Assembly (NCBI GenBank): GCA_036785375.1
Contig: JAWMAR010000603.1
Coordinates: forward strand, 682,001-746,000
DNA: 64,000 nucleotides
Direction of reading: 5' to 3'
Origin: Leucoraja ocellata
Lineage: Eukaryota
Shown: piece by piece, positions 10,420-54,036 of the stretch
Position numbering within the stretch: position 1 is the stretch's first letter
How the letters are laid out: every line of letters begins with the position of its first letter
The notes under the pieces: model-generated
Seen by the model: only the letters and a program-made list of their open reading frames with translations
Told to the model about the DNA's origin: nothing
Databases searched by the model: none
Translations under genes and position numbers: made by a program

Positions 10420-10559
10420 GTAATTGAAATATTTTGTATAATTTGAATAAACTGGGGGTCGGTGCTTGGATTATTGAAAATATTTTATTTATAACTAGAA
10501 AGTAAGTCTGATTGTACTTTTTAAAATTAGAAATGCCTGTTTCTCTCTCTCTCCAACAG

Positions 10560-11301
10560 AAACCAGGAGAAAACTGACCAACCTTTATTGTACAAGGCTG
10601 AGAATCCATCTGTGGAAGCTGTGCCTTCACCCAAAGGTGACAAACTAAGTGATCAACAAGACAAAACAAACTCCAATAACAATGTAGAAAGTAATCAAAG
10701 TACTGAGAATACAGCAGATGGCCCGCTGTCTGAATTGACGACTGAGAAAGACTATGATGCTGGAGAGAGAGTTCAGGATAATTCCTCCAACCAAGCACTC
10801 ACACCTTCAGATACTAACGAAGCACAAGATTTAAAATCAGTGGATAATGATGTAGAAATAGTTCAAGATGAGTTTGTGGGAATTGATACTTGTGATGAAC
10901 CTAAAGATTGCAAGACTCTTCCGGATTTAATACTGAAATGTAAACAGACAGGGAATGAGGGAATTGATAATGAAAAATGTACTGAAGAAAAGAGCAAAGA
11001 TGCAAATGTGGAACAGAATAAGGATCCCAAAGAAGATGTTTGCTTTGACCAGTTTTTCAGGAGCAAAGATGAGCCAGAAGCTGTTGGTTCTGATGTGAGT
11101 GAGCAGGGCAGCATTCAGCTGGAACCACTCACTCCTTCTGAAGTTTTAGAACATGAAGCTACTGAGATTCTGCAGAAAGGGAGTGTGGTGACGGTTACCA
11201 AGAGAAAGGGAACAGCATCAACAGAGGAAAATAATAAAGAAACTACTCCTGCTCCAATACTACTAAGCTCAGAGCATCTAGAAGAAAATGAAAAGAGCTG
11301 A
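10560..11301 (+). CDS. ZNF280D: ZNF280D terminal coding exon (acidic disordered C-terminus)
   Basis: (ct)n-ccaacag| acceptor, phase 2, long ORF ending in TGA at 11301. Contains DQFFRSKDEPEAVGSDVSEQGSIQLEPLTPSEVLEHEATEILQKGS, nearly identical to the recalled human ZNF280D C-terminal motif. Synteny with MNS1 supports the call. Confidence 0.9.
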
Positions 11302-28399: not shown

Positions 28400-30790
28400 A
28401 TATCAGCCACTCGCCATACATAAACCTTTCCCCTGAAATCCCCTTTAAAACCTCTTAATCTCGCCCTCCATTTTTGAATAATGTACCACAGAAAATAAGT
28501 GCCTCTTATAATTTTATATGCCTCCATCAGGTCTCAGCCAGGGAAAAGAAACTAGCCTATCCCATCTCTCCCCACAACTGTCCTCCAATCCAGGCAACAC
28601 CCTGGTGAATCTGTGTAGGAAGGAACTGCAGATGCTGGTTTAAATCGAAGGTAGACACAAAATGCTGGAGTAACTCAGCGGGTCAGGCAGCATCTTCAGA
28701 CTCTTCGAAGGGTCTCGACCCGAAACGTCACCCATTCCTTCTCTCCAGAGATGCTGCCTGACCCGCTGAGTTACTCCAGCATTTTGTGTCTACCCTGGTG
28801 AATCTCCCCTGCACCCTCAATAGTGACATCATTTTCTGCCAATAGTGTGGTGACCAGAACTGTGCACGATCACCAACATTCCTGAATATCTTATATTAGC
28901 TGTAAATGTTCTATCTCTATTTGACTTCTCAAAATACTTCACTCTGCAATTGTCAGGATTAAGTTTCATCTGTCTGCACTCTGTAGCCTTAGACAACCTT
29001 CCTCACCATGCACAATATCACTAACTTTCTGCAAGTCATCTGCAAGCTCACTATTCTCCTACATTAGTTGTTAATATGGATCACAAACAACAAGGACACC
29101 AGCACCAATCTCTGCAGTGCACCACTGGTCACCGACAGGCAATCAGAAAAGCAACCCTCCACCACTACCCTTGGCCTCTTGTCACCAAGACAATTTTGGA
29201 TCCAATTAGCCTTCGATCCCATGGGTCCTAACCTTCTAGACCAGATTACCATTGGGACCTTGTCAAATGCCTTACTCTCTCGTTCATTTAGACAACTTCC
29301 ACTCTCCTGCCTTCATCAATCTTTTTATTTATCTTCTCAAAAATCTCCATCAAATCAGTGAGACGTGATTTCCAATGCATAAAGGCCCGTGCTGATGATA
29401 TTCCTGATCTGCCCCAGCTTTTACCACGATACCTAAATTCTATCACCTCTGGATTTTCTCCAACAATTTCTTAACACTGATTTCAGGTTCACCAGTCCAT
29501 AGTTATCTGGCTTCTTTCTGGTTACCAAAGATAGAAAAATGTTCATTAGGGCCCCCGCCATCTCTTCCATTGCTTCCCATAGCAACTTGGGATAGATCTC
29601 ACCTTGTACTGGGGACTATCAACCCTTATAAATCCCATGACATCAAACACCAATCCTTCATCATACTGAACTGGTCCAGATTATCTACATCCACTACCCT
29701 GAACTTCCCATCTTCCATGTCTTTCTCCTTGATGAATATAAATGAGAAATATTCATTTAGGACCTTATCCACATCGCTAGGATTACCCTTTTGGATCCTA
29801 CGGGGACCCAGTCTTTTCCCATCTACCTTCTTATTCCTAATATATTTATTAAATGGCTTATTGTCCTCCTTAATCATATGTGGCAAGGATATGTCATGCC
29901 CTACTTTTCCCCTCTTAATTTCCTGTGTTATCTCCTACACACTCTATATTCTTCATGAGAAATCCTCAATCACAGTTGCCTAGACCTACCACATGTTCGT
30001 TTTCTCTTCCTGATCAAATATCAATATCTTTTGTCATCCAAAATTCTGTCACCTTACCAAGTTTGCCTTTAAACCTTTATCGGACATGCTCGCCTGAATT
30101 CTTGCTCTCTTTTAAAAGACTCCCACTTGTCAGTTCTTGTTTTGCCGCAAGCATCTGCTCCCAGTTTACTCTCACAGGTCATCTCACATGCTATTGAAAC
30201 CATGTTCTCCTACTTCAAGAACTTAACCCGAGGACCAACCTCATCCCTTTCTATAACAACATTGACCCCCCCCCCCCCCCCAACACACACACCTCTCATT
30301 GTCCTTCCATCTACTGCCCAGTTTCATTTCTTAGGTAGAGCTTCAATACGGTCTCATCTTGAGTAATACTCTCTACATATTGTGTCAAATAAATTCCTTG
30401 CATGCACTTAACAAATTCCATCCAATCTAAGGCAATCCCAGTCAATACTGGAAAATTTAAAATTCTCCACTACCATAACCCTATCACTCTTAAATCTTTG
30501 CATGATTTGTTTACATACCAGCTGTTCCTCTCATTCACACTGTGACTATAGTATAATCCAGCAAAGTGTTTGCCTGTCGCTTTTTCCCCGAAGTTCCACT
30601 CCTACTGCCTTGTTAGATACTCCCTCCAGGATATCCTCTAACTTCCTCTGGTACCGCCATTATATTCTCCCTATAATAGTGTGAATCACTCTCTTTCCCA
30701 TCTCTCTCTTTCACACCTGAAATTTCTATGCTGTCCTTCCTTACTATAGTTGTAATAACATCATAATTCCAATACTGATCCACATCAGAT
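28400..30790 (-). mobile_element. long decayed CR1-type LINE
   Basis: WIQNCLGDKRPRVVVEGCFSDCLSVTSGALQRLVLVSLLFVIHIN (RT region) and VLNEYFSFIFIKEKDME. Boundaries approximate. Confidence 0.8.
28613..28791. mobile_element. palindromic Penelope-end mini-retroelement with 14-bp TSD
   Basis: Inverted arms (gacacaaaatgctggagtaactcagcgggtcaggcagcatct and its reverse complement) flanked by ACCCTGGTGAATCT at 28599-28612 and 28792-28805. Confidence 0.85.
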
Positions 30791-44499: not shown

Positions 44500-45432
44500 A
44501 AGTCAAGTCAAGTCAAGTTTATTTGTCACATACACATACGAGATGTGCAGTGAAATGAAAAGTGGCAATGCTCGCGGACTTTGTGCAAAAAGACAAACAA
44601 ACAAACAAACAAACAACCAAACAAACTACAAACAGAATGGAACAGATCACATATTCTTTTACATATTTAATATAATGGGCGGAAGGAAAAACGGAAAAAA
44701 ACAGCACTTTTTAAAAAAGCAATAGAGTGGTACAGTAAAGTTAGTCCCTGGTGAGATAGGAGTTTACAGTCCTAATAGCCTCTGGGAAGAAACTCCTTCT
44801 CAACCTCTCCGTTCTCACAGCATGGCAACGGAGGCGTTTGCCTGACCACAGCAGCTGGAACAGTCCATTGCAGGGGTGGAAGGGGTCTCCCATGATTTTA
44901 TTGGCTCTGGAGTTGCACCTCCTGATGTATAGTTCCTGCAGGGGGGCGAGTGAAGTTCCCATAGTGCATTCGGTCGAACGCACTACTCTCTGCAGAGCCT
45001 TCTTGTCTTGGGCAGAGCAATTCCCAAACCAGATTGTAATATTTCCAGACAAGCTGCTTTCCACAGCCGCTGAGTAGAAGCACTGGAGGATCCTCGGAGA
45101 CATTCTGAATTTCCTCAATTGCCTGAGGTGGTAAAGGCGCTGCCTTGCCTTACTCACGAGTGCTGCGGCGTGTGATGTCCATGTCATATCCTCAGAGATG
45201 TGGACTCCCAGGTATTTAAAACAGCTCGCCCTATCCACAGTATTCCCATTTATCCTCAATGGTGTGTACGTCCTCGGATGATGAGCCCTCCTAAAGTCCA
45301 TGATCTGCTCCTTAGTTTTTTTGATGTTCAAGAGGAGGCTGTTGTCCTGACCAGAGTGCCAGATCAGCCACATCCTCCCGGTAGGCCTTCTCATCGTTGT
45401 CTGAGGCCCACCACCACAGTGTCATCAGCAAA
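44500..45432 (-). mobile_element. Rex1/Babar-type LINE, 5'-truncated, relatively young
   Basis: FADDTVVVGL followed by LLLNIKKTKEQIMDFRR...FKYLGVHISEDMTW...KARQRLYHLRQL...FFPEAIR*; 3' end AATAAA plus (CTTGA)n tail. Confidence 0.88.
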
Positions 45433-45720: not shown

Positions 45721-46094
45721 AGTAACCCAAAGTAGATATCCTGGAAAACAATTTTTTCTCTGATATTCTGCAATAATAACAAGGAAACTGTCAATGGTCA
45801 TTATTATTATGGAGAAATTGGCCTGCAACATCTAACATTTGAATGTAAACTGTAAAATAAGAAGCAGGAGTCCATAATTGAAGTTCAATTTACCTTGTTC
45901 CTCAGTTAGCTTTATTTCATCAATAATTTGCTGGTAAACTTGGTTTTGTAGTACTTTTTTAACGATTTAGTCATTCTTAGTTAGTATCATGTATGGAAGG
46001 TTTAGGCCCTGGATATTAGTCCAGTGACCTAACTACCAGTTACCCACCAAACGCAGCAGATATTTTTAAAATATCCATCCAATTGCAAGTGGAA

Positions 46095-47656
46095 TAGACA
46101 CAAAATGCTGAAGTAACTCAGCTGGACAGGCAGCATCTCTGGAGAAAAGGAATGTGTGACATTTCGGGTTGAGACCCTTCTTCAGAATAGTCAGGGGAAA
46201 GGGAAATGAGCGATGTAGACAGTGATGTAGAGAGATATAGAACAAATGAATGAAAGATAAGCAAAAAAGTAACGATGATAAAGGAAACAGGCCGTTAGCT
46301 GTTTGCTGGGTGAGAACGAGAACCTGGTGTGACTTGGGTGGGGGAGGGATGGATAGAGAGGGAATGTAGGGTTACTGGAAGTAAGAGATATCAATATTCT
46401 TATCACTGGGTTGTAAGCTACCCAAGCAAAATATGAGATGCTGTTCCTCCAATTTGCATTTAGCCTCTCTCTAACAATGGAGGAGGCTTAGGACAGAAAG
46501 GTTAGTGTGGGAATGGGTAGGGGAATTAAAGTGTTTGAAACCGAGAGATCAGGTAGGTACAGGCAGACTGAGCGAAGGTGTTCAGCGAAATGATCGTCCA
46601 GTCTACGCTTGGTCTGGCCAATGAATACGAGTCCACATCTTGAACAATGGATACAGCAGATCAGGTTGGAGGAGATGCAGGTGAACCTCTGCCTAACCTG
46701 AATGGACTGTTGGGGTTCCTGGACAGAGTCGAGGGAGGAGGTATAGGGACAGGTGTTGCATCTCCTGCGATTGCAGGGAAAGGTACCTGGGGAGGGGGTG
46801 GTTTGGGTGAGAAGGGATGAGTTAACCAGGGAGTTGCGGAAGGAACGGTCTCTACGTAAGGCGGAAAGGGGCGGAGATGGGAAGATGTGACTCATGGTGG
46901 GATCCATAGGAGATGGCAAAAATGTCAGAGGATTACGTGTTCTATGCGACGGCTGATGGGGTGAAGGTTAAGGACTAGGGGGGCTGGTCCTGTAACGACT
47001 AGGGGGAGGGGAGCAAGGGCGGAGCTACGGGGTACTGAGGAAACATGTGTGAGGGCCTCATCTATGATGGAAGAGGGGAACCCTCTTTCCCTAAAGAATG
47101 AGGACATCTCAGATGTCCTGGTATAGGACACCTCATCTTGGGCACAGATGCAGGAAAAACGGTGGGAAGAAGTGTAGTTGAGATAGTTGTGGGAGCCAGT
47201 GGGTTTGTAGTAGACAGTCTATCTCCTGTAATAGAGACTGAGATCAAGAAAGGGGAGAGAGATGTCGGAGATGGTCCAAGTGAATTTGCGTGCAGGATGG
47301 AAATTGGTGGTGAAGTTGATGAAGTCCATGAGTTCTGCATGCATGCAGGAGGGAGCACCGATGCAGTGGTCAATGTAATGGAGATAGAATTCAGGGATAG
47401 GACCAGTGTATGCCTAGTGCAGGGATTGTTCGACCTACCCTACAAAGAGGCAGGCATAGCTGGGCCCCGTGAGAGTGCCCATAGCTACGCCTTTGACTTG
47501 GAGGAAGTGGGAGAAGTCGAAGGAGAAGTTATTAAGGGTGAGGATCAGCTCTGCTAGGCAGAGGAGAGTTGAGGGAAATTGGCTGGTTCTGCGGTCGAGG
47601 AAGAAACAGAGGGCTTTAAGGCCTTCCTGGCGGGGGGTGGATATGTAAGTGGGCAT
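46095..47656 (-). mobile_element. Penelope-like retroelement (RT + GIY-YIG), 5'-truncated and frameshifted
   Basis: LILTLNNFSFDFSHFLQVKGVAMGT...PSYACLFVG (PLE RT) and FPCNRRRCNTCP...QRFTCISSNLICCIHCSRCGLVFIGQTKRRLDDHFAEH (GIY-YIG). The 3' end carries a hammerhead-like motif. Confidence 0.92.
46158..46185 (-). ncRNA. minimal hammerhead ribozyme-like motif at the Penelope 3' end
   Basis: CTGAAGA-AGGGTCTCAACCC-GAAA-TGTC on the - strand. Confidence 0.55.
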
Positions 47657-49200: not shown

Positions 49201-51385
49201 AAAACGAAAAACCTTGCTTATGGCTCTTGACCATGCCCAAGTAAGGCATATTAAATAACACCATCTAACACACCTTCTAGAAGTAATGTTGTACTGTTTT
49301 GGCGTAATTTCAGGATCACATATGCAGACATCCACACACACACGCACAGACAGAATCACACACATAGAAACAAACAAGATGAGAGTTTTAGTAATATACT
49401 AGACCAAGTGAAACCCATTGGGTCCCTGTCACACAGGCGCGCACCTCAAGATGAGAGTTTTAGTAATATATAGATAGATATTTAAAATAAGCCAGTTTTC
49501 CTCATGTTACAATTCAGCATTGTAGTCATAAACCAATAAGATTAATTGACTTTACTTTAATTTGTTGAGTAATAGTTTGTGATAATAATGCTCCTTTAAG
49601 CATCAATTAGTTTAAATCTAGAGAATTATGTTGTGTGATCATTTATTTGCTCAAAACATTACTATAACCATGCCCCATGGGGTTAGATGTAGCACGTGAA
49701 AAATTACCATTATTAATGTTAAAAAAAGCAAAGTTTATTGTAATAATTCAGCCTATTCTCCAATTTTTTTTTAGATTGTACAATTAATTAATGTACAATA
49801 TGTGACTATAATTGTTTTGAGAGTTTTATCTATGTTCCACATTGCACACTGATATTTAAACATTAGAGAAAGGAACTACCCACCATAATTATCACGATTA
49901 TATACTGTATATTTAATCAAATATGTTACTAAGAATCTCTTAGAGACTCAAAACAATTCACCCTCAAATTATTACATAATTCATCAAGTCATCACTTCAT
50001 GAGAAAATGTTTGCAGATCCCTAGTGATACAAGAGCAGAAAACATTAAGTAAGTAATATTAATAGACTATTAGCTGTTAACCAGATATTAATAGTAATTT
50101 AATTCCAGTATCTCCTGAACATCAATTACATATGAAAACAAATCTGGACTGTTTTCTGGAAAAAAAACTATTATTTCTGCTTTAATTAATTTTGGCTCTT
50201 TAGTTCAATATGTATTCTGTCTGAAGAAATAAGCACTCATAAGGCTGCCAAGCCTTCAAAACACCGCTCTCTGACACTTTTGGAAACTGGACCAGAGGTA
50301 ATTTATCTATCCTCTACCTAGACATAACTAAAACTCTGATCTTGTGCTCTTCCGGTTTATATGGTTTTTCTATTTGCGCAAATATGGTACACGATAGTGC
50401 TATGATTTTTCGCCACCTTACACACCTGTGCTGCAGTGCAACAAGTTTTGTTCCAATCGGTGTCATATTGTAAAAGTTAGCGAGGTTTAAAAATCCTTCC
50501 TTTAACAGGGTGACCAGAAACATACAAAATCACGACTTAGTTTTCCCCTCCAAAACTCCTCATGGTCTTTCTGCTTACTGGAATAATTCTTCATCTTGGA
50601 GGTCATGTGTTTGAGTCTGTTTCTGCAATTACCCCATTTGAAGCCTGATAGAATGATGGATGTTGAATAGGGCAACAGGGCTTAGAAGCAAAAGATAATA
50701 TCGATCAAGCCCCAAAACTTAATAACCACATACAGTCAAGGAATTTATAATACACTTGTATCACGTATTGTACACTTGTCTATGGCAGTGCCATGTCCTC
50801 TAACACAGTAGGTCATGGATTTAATCCCTACCCACTTAAATATTCAAGTACTTCTGAAGCCTCCTTGTAAATTAAACAAATGCTTATTTTCCACCCCATA
50901 TATTAATTTTACACTGATATTTCAGAACTGTTCAAGTTCTGGAGTGGATATTGAATTCATGATCTACTTGTTTAAAGGGCAGCGTAATGTCAAATTAGAC
51001 AAGGGAAAAAACCCTGACTTTTTGCACTGTTCATGGGATTTAAGTTCTAGGGCTTTAATATTACAGCATTAGTGTAGTACCTTATCATTGTCACTATATT
51101 TTGGGGACGGTTAAATTGGGGTCCTGAACACCTAATCAAATAGATCTAAAAAGGCAATTTCTCAAAATGTTCAGAAAAGGAATGGGTGGCGTTTCGGGTT
51201 GAGACCTTACTTCTCGATCCAAAACGTCACCTTTTCCTGCTCTCCAGAGATGCTGCCTGTCCCGCTGAGTTATTCCAGTTGTTTGTGTCTATTCTTTGGT
51301 TTCTTTAGTCAGAGGGTGGTGAATCTGTGGAATTCTTTGCCACAGAAAGCCGTGGAAACATTTAAGGCAGAGATAGATAGATTAT

Positions 51386-51628
51386 TGTGTAGGGATGAAC
51401 TGCGGGTGCTGGTTTAAAACAGAAGACAGGCACAAAAGGCAGGAATAATTCAACGGGGGGGGGAGGGGGGTCAGGCATCATCTCTGGAGAGAATGAATAG
51501 AGCAAAGGGGGGGGGGGGGGGGAAAGACTGGAGTCTGAAGAAGGGTTTCGGCCCGAAACGTTGCCTATTTCCTTAGCTCCATAGATGCTGCTGCACCCGC
51601 TGAGTTTCTCCAGCATTTTTGTGTACCT
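51386..51628 (+). mobile_element. Penelope-end mini-element, copy 1 upstream of the MNS1 promoter
   Basis: Inverted-arm structure with a hammerhead motif; inserted in a CR1 3' end with tagatagatt on both sides. Confidence 0.75.
51535..51562 (+). ncRNA. minimal hammerhead ribozyme-like motif (core intact)
   Basis: CTGAAGA-AGGGTTTCGGCCC-GAAAC-GTT; palindromic AACGTT stem III; stem I is weak. Confidence 0.6.
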
Positions 51629-51919
51629 TAGAATTAGATAGATTCTTAGTTGTGGGGAGAAGGCAGGGGAATGGGGTTAGGAGGGAGAGATAGATCAGCC
51701 ACGGTTGAATGGCGGAGTAGACTTGATTGGCCGAATGGCCTAATTCTGCTCCTATCACTTACGATCATAAAGCAGCATCTGCAGTTCAGTTCCTTCCCAA
51801 CCCAGTGCTCGGCGCCTTCTGTTGAGTCTCGTTGCTGAGCAGCAACGGAATCCGCCTTCAAAATGCCGCCCGCAACCAATCACGGGCCTTGTTACTGGAC
51901 GGTGAGCGGGGCACCGGAT

Positions 51920-51933
51920 GTTTCCAGGGTAAC
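51920..51933. promoter_or_regulatory. RFX X-box
   Basis: GTTTCC-AG-GGTAAC matches the GTTNCCATGGNAAC-type consensus, about 80 nt upstream of the ATG of a ciliary gene. Confidence 0.75.
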
Positions 51934-52014
51934 CGCCGCTGCTCTGGAATTGTCTTGGCATCGCCGTCGAAGTTAGTGATCGATAAACTATTGCCCACGG
52001 TATCACTGTCCAAG

Positions 52015-52017
52015 ATG
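52015..52017 (+). CDS. MNS1: MNS1 exon 1 coding part (ATG only)
   Basis: caagATG|GTAAGT inside the CpG island; phase 0 joins exon 2. Confidence 0.82.
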
Positions 52018-52232
52018 GTAAGTGAGGCCCGGGAGAGCGTCGGCTCGGCACAGTGGCAGCTCCTGGGAATAATCGGGACACTTGCTGGATCTTTTGGCTG
52101 GTTCCTTTTTTTGAGGGGGACTGCGGAAGAGTTCCGATGGTTGCCCTGGGTATGGGTCACAAACCCCGATGGAGAAAATGCCCACGAAGCCCTCCAGTGC
52201 CACACCCATGGACCCGGACACCTCGTGTAAGA

Positions 52233-52460
52233 TGTGTAGGGATGAACTGCGGGTGCTGGTTTAAACCGAAGACGGGCACAAAAGGCGGGAATAATTCAAC
52301 GGGGGCGAGGGTCAGGTATAATCTCTGGAGAGAATGAATAGAGAAAAGGGGAAAAAAGACTGGAGTCTGAAGAAGGGTCTCGACCCGAAACGCCACCTAT
52401 TTCTTTTCTCCAGAGGTGCTGCCTGACCCGCTGAGTTACTCCAGTATTTTTGCGTCTATT
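52233..52460 (+). mobile_element. Penelope-end mini-element, copy 2 in MNS1 intron 1
   Basis: Direct repeat of 51386-51545; hammerhead motif at 52367-52394 with GCC at the cleavage triplet. Confidence 0.75.
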
Positions 52461-53814
52461 TCCTCATGCAAGAACCGTGAGGGGCGATGTGGGGAGTGAC
52501 AGAATAGCGACAGAATTATCTCACCTTTACTCCATCATCTGCAGAAGAGTTTCAACCGTGCTAAATGGGACAGACTGAACAGATCTGAGGTCATAATTGG
52601 AAATCCACGCCATCTTGCAAAAGCCAAGCTATTCTATCTTCAACTTTTCCTATACATGCACCTGTGCATATGTCTTTTAGATATAGTTATTGTACCTGCC
52701 AACCTCTTTCCCTGGCATCTCATTCCATGTATCCACCACCCTTAGTGTGAAGATGTTTCCCCACCTGTTCGTATGAAATCTCACCTCCCCTCACCATTTT
52801 TGTGTCCAATTAGCCAGCTCTCCCTGGATTCATGCAATTTAACCTACAGAGTAACCTGTTGTGCTAAACCTTATCAAACTGCTTGCTGCAAAGAAAACTT
52901 TTACTGCCCTGTCCTTATCAACCTTTTTGGTTACCTTCTTCAAAAAATCTCAATCAAAATCATGAGACGCTATCTCCCATTCATAAAACTGTGCTGATTG
53001 TCTCTCATCAATCCCTGTCTTTCCAAATATTCCAAATAGATTGACAGCCCCTGTCAAGGAGGAGCCACTTCACGAGAGGAATCTCAGGCACAGGATATAG
53101 GGAAGGAAGCCCAAAATGTTATACAGACATTGATGAAGTACTCAGTTCGAAAATACTGAGCCTTGCTGTCTGAGGATTATCATGCTGGCTTTTGAGTTAC
53201 CCCTACTCCAACTTGTACTTGGCCACATAAAGTTGGGAACAGTGTGGACAAACTATTTTAAATGCTTGCCTGCCTGGTCCCTGCTATGTTTTTGCAGTAT
53301 GGAATGGAATAAAGTTAAAATTACACATCTATGCCATTACCAACTCTCTCCACCATAGGTTAAAAGTTTAAGAAAGAACTGCAGATGCTGGAAAAATCAA
53401 AGGTAGACAATAGGTCCACCATAGTAGACCATAGGTAGCATTTACAGAAACACTTTTTGCAGAATGTTGAATTGAGCACCAAACTGATTATTCATTCAAT
53501 GTTCCCTGCCATTTATTGCATCTTTATGCATCATCTAATAAGAGGTTTATGAACTATTTTGCTTTCTAGTTCATAAATTCTTACATGCAAAACATCATAA
53601 ACTTCTAAAACAATGAATTTCTTGACAGTTGCATCATTACCCAAGATGTGTCATGGATGATTTTTTTCTCTGTGTGAAACAGTTATTGAAGCGTATATGA
53701 AAACATGTTTGCACTGATTTGCTAAAAGTCTAAGAAAAAGATGCAATATTTCATAATTTTGCTTGTGTCAATGTTTTACAATATAATGTGCATTTTCTAC
53801 TTTTATATTAACAG

Positions 53815-54036
53815 GCTTCAATTTGCCCAAGAAAAGAAGCAGCCCTTCAGCAGGCTAGGAATATAGAGTCCCAAAATCATAGGGATGAAATTTATAAAGA
53901 ATTTCTTGAAAAATTGAGTAAAGAAAAGTCTATATTGGCAAAAGTAAGGGCTGATGAAATGGCATCACGAAAGCAATTCCAAAGAATTTTACAGGAGATC
54001 GAACAGGAAAAAATGATGGAAGAAACAATTATGAAG
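53815..54036 (+). CDS. MNS1: MNS1 exon 2
   Basis: acag|...AAG|GTGAGC; 74 codons ASICPRKE...RKQFQRILQEIEQEKMMEETIMK. Confidence 0.9.

Follow-up and report, generated by a model that had tools for sequence, protein, structure and literature searches.

We found that two same-orientation repeat copies on either side of the MNS1 promoter and start exon in Leucoraja ocellata are a real and rare hybrid insertion scar, and neither a retrozyme nor a new RNA system. One of them (copy 1) is a hybrid that, on a narrow balance of probability, was finished at insertion by copying about 160 nt from the other (copy 2), 850 nt away. Coordinates below refer to the window, i.e., the whole stretch of 64,000 nt that was analysed, and the features at the locus are as follows.

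51173-51300, unstranded: copy 0, the oldest of the subfamily-A fold-back stubs, with its antisense arm at 51173-51213 and its sense arm at 51212-51300; divergence from consensus A about 12%
51300-51385, plus strand: LINE 3' stub, left part, within copy 0 and interrupted by copy 1
51374-51386, plus strand: left target-site duplication of copy 1 (10 of 10 nt identical; 13 nt with 1 mismatch)
51386-51500, minus strand: left arm of copy 1, an antisense subfamily-A end with tail, 15% from consensus A
51501-51546, plus strand: centre of copy 1, common to copy 2 and ending in a 15-nt identity at 51532-51546
51532-51629, plus strand: right arm of copy 1, a young subfamily-B end that stops at the family's proximal end site
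51535-51562, plus strand: minimal hammerhead core 1 (CUGAAGA, bulged A, 4-bp stem II, GAAAC, GUU triplet), with a predicted cut after 51562
51635-51647, plus strand: right target-site duplication of copy 1, pairing with 51374-51386
51635-51766, plus strand: LINE 3' stub, right part (colinear match pairs)
51767-51800, plus strand: tail of copy 0, displaced; it agrees with the end of consensus A at 27 of 32 columns
51800-52017, plus strand: CpG-rich MNS1 promoter and first exon, single-copy (CCAAT at 51876; ATG at 52015-52017, then a GT donor)
52221-52232, plus strand: left target-site duplication of copy 2 (10 of 12 nt match)
52233-52460, unstranded: copy 2, an older subfamily-A fold-back stub in MNS1 intron 1, both arms A
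52367-52394, plus strand: hammerhead core 2, with U16.1 changed to C at 52393 (GAAAC-GCC) on both haplotypes; the family base is T
52462-52473, plus strand: right target-site duplication of copy 2, pairing with 52221-52232

The spacer between the copies has a GC content of 0.57, a CpG observed/expected ratio of 0.79 and a CCAAT at 51876. The ATG and the GT that follows it (52015-52019) are succeeded by a phase-0 exon of 222 nt at 53815-54036; this exon 2 has no match to MNS1 by phmmer, and the identity of the gene rests on a later exon downstream (E = 5.5 × 10−26). A 14-mer at 51920-51933, which a regular-expression scan did not match, we take to be X-box-like from comparison by eye with the X-box consensus. 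The CTGAAGA-stem II-GAAAC motifs start at 51535 and 52367, so that the first-pass annotation was correct, in coordinates and in content, in placing two cores 832 nt apart around the CpG promoter, the X-box-like site and the ATG exon. Elsewhere in the window, an acidic open frame of 256 aa without a Pfam match (10531-11301, plus strand) is probably an exon of the upstream gene. A 226-aa frame at 44741-45421 (minus strand) matches ALKBH8_N (PF09004), which is typical of a LINE remnant.

Contig C391 is colinear with the window's contig, with 1.07% substitutions over 92.8 kb, and carries both copies; the same figures rule it out as an independent locus, and we read it as the other haplotype of the MNS1 locus. 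In a genome search, the promoter spacer was found solely on these two haplotypes. Several further loci appear in duplicate in the assembly, their flanks being nearly identical; haplotypes seem not to have been collapsed, which would inflate copy counts. The MNS1 locus is present in four organisms, and contigs of three relatives link the promoter to the left arm of copy 2 with few differences, reaching 41-49 nt into copy 2, beyond 52262. Since a contig break at 52262 is expected in a 31-mer graph if a second identical copy is present, these contigs give a weak hint that copy 1 may be absent or diverged in the three relatives. The short-read contigs of the relatives, in which family copies swamp the signal (about 240,000-320,000 records per run), showed neither an empty site nor a deletion among the joints listed (15, with 3,486 more).

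By its sequence, the repeat is the end of a Neptune-type Penelope-like element (PLE). An 809-aa frame (L167 4485-7160, minus strand, in G000:C32) matches RVT_1 (E = 5.9 × 10−6) and GIY-YIG (E = 0.027), both below the Pfam cut-offs, and a subfamily-B end at 97% of the consensus lies 113 nt downstream of it; the proximity of this end to a frame that is still open indicates that subfamily B is recent. In the same frame, the CCHH GIY-YIG domain is preceded by CNRKRCNTC, equivalent to the extra CX2-5CxxC motif in the RT-EN linker by which PMC8557442 defines the Neptune clade. A decayed Penelope with RT and nuclease remnants and a subfamily-A end (46186-46083) occupies 46083-47620 (minus strand) of the window and is also on the other haplotype. 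The decayed nuclease frame upstream of that end has at least 150 scored relatives in the genome, and at 4 of the 10 nuclease loci listed, a near-full A end follows the nuclease match at about 350-520 nt on the same strand. These RT and GIY-YIG frames with A or B ends bear out the Penelope origin that had been proposed for the hammerhead cores.

Consensus sequences were built from 122 A and 16 B copies. In a sample of 1.544 Mb containing 622 arms and 130 head-to-head hairpins, subfamily A is the older (median divergence 12%, 391 arms) and subfamily B the younger (median 4%, 82 arms, only 3 of which lie within 1.1% of the consensus). Family ends fall at two preferred sites about 35 nt apart, left arms ending at consensus position 134 and right arms at 95-99, which yields a tail of 30-40 nt; no systematic left/right asymmetry was seen in 36 hairpins of the family (287 vs. 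275 mismatches). Copy 1 is the one clear A/B hairpin among the 130 (20 others, with an intermediate or unclassed arm, are left uncounted), and none of 36 further hairpins at other loci is mixed. The hairpin at G000:C603:774141, initially a candidate for a second A/B case, dropped out in a 17-site test and resembles an intermediate subfamily; it spans 774141-774386, its centre (about 60 nt) is foreign and its duplication is 18 nt long. Two other hairpins may be recorded here: one at about 2017723-2017960 of G000:C175, whose two arms have 12 derived variants in common, and a young A hairpin in the window (28612-28792), with both arms 2% from the consensus and a target duplication that is perfect over 14 nt.

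Copies 1 and 2 are, on the evidence of their structure, two separate fold-back insertions, each with its own duplication; no duplication surrounds the whole 1.07-kb unit, the outer flanks of which are unmatched. The duplication of copy 1 is strong (its score is reached by 0.2% of 500 random flank pairs), and that of copy 2 is weak when taken alone (6.4%). Copy 1 sits in a LINE 3' stub, which itself splits copy 0 and is presumably of CR1 type, given the protein motif that we recognise in upstream frames of such copies; elsewhere this LINE piece is uninterrupted, with 27 colinear match pairs carrying both flanks together. The right arm of copy 1 matches consensus B at 97 of 98 positions on the window haplotype and at all 98 on C391, whereas the left arm is 85% identical to consensus A and 77% to B, and the switch from copy-2 type to subfamily B takes place within the 15 identical nucleotides at 51532-51546. 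Both ends of copy 1 coincide with the family's two common end sites. In copy 2, the antisense arm (52233-52341) is 16% from the consensus and the sense arm (52364-52460) diverges by 5% on the window haplotype and 8% on C391; the difference between left and right arms, 12 vs. 4 changes, is borderline (p = 0.058). Same-subfamily arms, a more decayed duplication and a right arm diverged by 5-8% indicate that copy 2 is older, and copying would therefore have run from copy 2 to copy 1.

Comparison of 52233-52455 with 51386-51624 gives 82% identity over 239 columns, with a tract of about 160 nt common to both copies and a longest perfect run of 33 nt, on both haplotypes. The first-pass annotation had described same-orientation mini-elements starting at 51386 and 52233 that share private variants, and this description holds: a diagnostic 24-mer has 3 exact matches genome-wide, all at the MNS1 locus or its C391 counterpart; a diagnostic 27-mer, searched with at most 1 mismatch, has 4 exact matches, all local, and 2 one-mismatch matches without the other variants; and a 20-mer from the centre has 3 matches genome-wide, all local. 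The left arms of copies 1 and 2 have 12 derived variants in common and 6 differences in 101 columns, and they are the top pair among the 64,395 A-arm pairs in the 1.544 Mb sampled (window included), i.e., each other's closest relatives there. Among 550 pairs lying 250-5000 nt apart, they are also the sole pair with more shared variants than differences. The local-only diagnostic k-mers, together with this rank, rule out a common genome-wide subfamily as the source of the shared variants and uphold local copying. Of 466 candidates, 40 were scored, and outside the locus the closest of these to the left 144 nt is about 80% identical over most of the arm, with one 68-nt piece at 88%; the searches for a non-local donor scored part of the candidates, which leaves room for a rare distant donor. 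The spectrum of the private variants is mixed, and A-to-I editing is unsupported as their source. The shared tract stops at 51546/52378, the front edge of the hammerhead, and the stem II loop, stem III and the cleavage triplet are outside it. The G runs of copy 1 (51459-51470 and 51504-51522) differ widely in length from one haplotype to the other and exceed those of copy 2.

The history of copy 1 that we favour, if only slightly, is completion from copy 2 during insertion. A young subfamily-B particle would have cleaved the LINE stub, and priming would have begun on the right, at the usual internal start; the B cDNA would have run leftwards on the minus strand to the front edge of the hammerhead and, rather than joining its own second arm, would have paired there with copy 2 through the common 15 nt, whereupon the plus strand of copy 2 would have templated the centre and the left arm of copy 1. 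The product would have been joined at the element's normal end, leaving the duplication of 10-13 nt; the exact stop at the terminus could mean that the left end, with its own start, annealed the patch or that it was primed on antisense copy 2 RNA. Insertion-time patching is supported by the single duplication that flanks the hybrid inside a LINE stub uninterrupted in 27 match pairs elsewhere, by the contrast between the arms (97-98 of 98 to B on the right, 85% A vs. 77% B on the left), by the 12 variants shared with copy 2, by the status of copy 1 as the only A/B hairpin of 130 and by its ends at the family end sites, as in the tail signature described in PMC11167929. According to the same source, the enzyme extends both strands. 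Three observations count against patching at insertion: the extra changes in the left part, a site matched by haplotype (51430/52276) and the report in PMC3846280 that cross-mobilisation was not seen among Penelope types. About 3-4 fixed changes are peculiar to the left part of copy 1 (about 130 nt), which also shows growth of the G runs, vs. none in 98 nt of the right arm; this hints that the right arm may be younger than the left part, although the difference is not significant (Fisher p = 0.14-0.26).

As for the donor of the left part, we tentatively consider copy 2 DNA a possible source, and an RNA source is possible at a somewhat fainter level of confidence; the RNA could have been nascent MNS1 pre-mRNA, a possible template in that it would have the same polarity as the plus strand of copy 2, or antisense copy 2 RNA on which the left end was primed. 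DNA and RNA donors would give the same sequence outcome, and sequence cannot separate them. It is improbable, in our estimate, that the Penelope RT, while inserting next to an active germ-line promoter, left its own RNA for nascent MNS1 pre-mRNA at the front edge of the hammerhead and so copied the intronic fossil copy.

Two other histories of copy 1 have to be weighed against patching at insertion. In one, which we regard as rather doubtful, a normal B/B hairpin was inserted and its left arm and centre were later overwritten from copy 2 DNA, either through ectopic gene conversion or through template switching in replication, possibly triggered by a break of the near-perfect palindrome. Such a history would dispense with a special transcript and would start from the norm, since B/B accounts for 15 of the 16 hairpins that have a B arm and could be fully classed as A/B or B/B. 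It is also in keeping with site 51430/52276, at which both copies have G on one haplotype and both have A on the second, suggesting either a later exchange between the copies (with a very short conversion tract) or repeated mutation; a fixed difference between copies 1 and 2 is 2 nt away from this site, and the change is found in 14 of 205 other arms. However, the conversion tract would have to extend to element base 4, leaving zero B-type bases, between arms that are just about 77-85% alike, and no other converted neighbours were found among the 550 near pairs. GC-biased conversion is unsupported as the source of the private variants, and its signature is absent (9 weak-to-strong vs. 7 strong-to-weak, p = 0.24). 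A promoter hotspot arising through loss of PRDM9 was also dropped: PRDM9 is reported in cartilaginous fish (PMC5519329), and no skate-specific paper was found.

In the second history, copy 2 was re-copied whole into the LINE stub with a target duplication, and a young B element later replaced, or was re-inserted in, the right arm. Cutting in the element's own pLTR has been proposed in PMC11167929, and the greater number of own changes in the left part of copy 1, as well as the one mismatch in its left duplication, would fit this order of events; we nevertheless hold it to be unlikely, because it requires two rare events at one site, there is no A-type remnant to the right of the B arm (only 5 nt, then the duplication), and the age difference between the arms is not significant.

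The first-pass annotation further suggested a retrozyme-like unit, with a hammerhead-like motif in each copy and pairing of two palindromic stem IIIs. An RNA circle requires two cuts. In the geometry of a hammerhead dimer, site 1 would be open to cutting by core 2, but site 2 would be a poor target for core 1. The GCC triplet of core 2 would allow one cut at most. Core 1 has an intact triplet and the features of a minimal type I PLE hammerhead as given in PMC4209133, namely CUGANGA, an extra base before stem II, G10.1-C11.1, GAAA, the palindromic 15.2-16.2 and UH. Copy 2 has no ACGT palindrome, no A15.1-U16.1 and no NUH triplet on either haplotype; the annotation had overlooked this, as it had the end of the shared tract ahead of the stem II loop. 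Stem I has 2 contiguous bp in all four strand combinations, vs. the 4-5 bp used as a criterion; the D. virilis variants in PMC4209133 likewise have a 2-bp helix I. Forcing the active fold on the RNA of 51380-52470 costs 21.4 kcal/mol over the minimum-energy fold, with a pair probability of about 4 × 10−10 for stem III, in a folding model that has neither tertiary contacts nor a known-active control. No Rfam match was found in the window, and 2 same-strand core pairs within 1 kb were seen in the sample vs. 1.24 expected, i.e., the level of chance. Another pair of same-strand cores, 617 nt apart and with both triplets intact, lies at about 5017470-5018090 of G000:C1 and, to judge from its triplets, is a better dimer candidate than the MNS1 locus.

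It is thus very improbable that the pair works as a double hammerhead that makes two cuts and releases a linear or circular RNA of about 830 nt, or that it regulates MNS1. CUGANGA, the bulged base, G10.1-C11.1 and GAAAC are kept in both cores, and the predicted fold joins the two copies by pairing left arm 1 with right arm 2. Minimal hammerheads are described as acting as dimers and may be protein-assisted (PMC4209133, PMC11167929), the Anolis Penelope hammerhead being one that, in PMC11167929, cleaves only with protein. Against these points stand the GCC triplet on both haplotypes, the 2-bp stem I and the cost of the active fold, the lack of Rfam matches, the chance level of the layout, a spacer that is single-copy and a unit without a flanking duplication, in which each copy has its own duplication and the hammerhead arms come from different subfamilies. 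Since the likely start site is between the copies, the broken copy alone would be part of MNS1 pre-mRNA. The hammerhead motifs are predicted to be passengers, with no circle expected.

Retrozymes, as described in PMC7229834 and bioRxiv 10.64898/2026.07.22.740005, resemble the locus in having two same-strand cores, each within one of two direct repeats that enclose a spacer of some 800 nt, and, for non-LTR retrozymes, a hammerhead of Penelope origin. However, non-LTR retrozymes need at least two consecutive tandem units with complete hammerheads, whereas here about 600 nt of unrelated DNA intervene and one core is broken; the LTR retrozymes of plants are mobile units with type III hammerheads in LTRs and a 4-bp duplication, whereas the cores here are of type I and the outer flanks are unmatched. 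The spacer here, unlike that of a retrozyme, is a single-copy host promoter on two haplotypes, and one of the two cores has an intact triplet. Units in which solo pLTRs enclose captured host DNA that is mobilised in trans (PMC3846280) likewise have host sequence between direct pLTR pieces, but a single duplication flanks them at their new site; at MNS1 the promoter is native and each stub has a duplication.

The closest parallels are with insertions. Inverted-pLTR insertions of EN+ PLEs, such as Pen2a_Av (PMC3846280, PMC8557442), are described with head-to-head arms, a one-sided tail of 30-40 bp, a duplication of 10-13 nt, a minimal hammerhead in the pLTR and a master frame with RT and GIY-YIG, all as found here, and the tail of the stubs matches two RT start sites given in PMC11167929. 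They differ from copy 1 in that its arms come from two subfamilies, one of them traced to a neighbour 850 nt away, and in that the stub has no reading frame. For L1, PMC11702581 describes nine insertions from two RNAs, with opposite orientation explained by extension of the two ends on different templates, and templated insertions; a single target site, two sources and short homology at the joint are common to these and copy 1, whereas here a Penelope RT with a GIY-YIG nuclease acts in the germ line, and the second source is an older family member close by. Judged by titles, we found no paper on local two-source Penelope stubs, which is not proof of absence.

As a by-product of these insertions, a direct repeat of 160 nt surrounds the promoter and start codon of the cilia and sperm gene MNS1, and the shared tract is an incidental deletion risk for this promoter. 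The annotation had expected recombination in the tract to delete the promoter and the ATG exon; this holds as geometry, but neither of the two assembled haplotypes carries a deletion allele. For the family, the scar bears on how Penelope insertions are closed, for which self-priming fold-back (PMC3846280) and extension of both cut strands (PMC11167929) have been put forward. Two traceable sources under one target duplication favour separate completion of the two ends together with local templating, and a genome-wide collection of hybrids would make the question of a DNA or RNA donor testable. If the jump onto pre-mRNA were true, Penelope integration would draw on local host transcripts for its patches, and a hybrid stub would be a record of the genes that were transcribed at the site of insertion.
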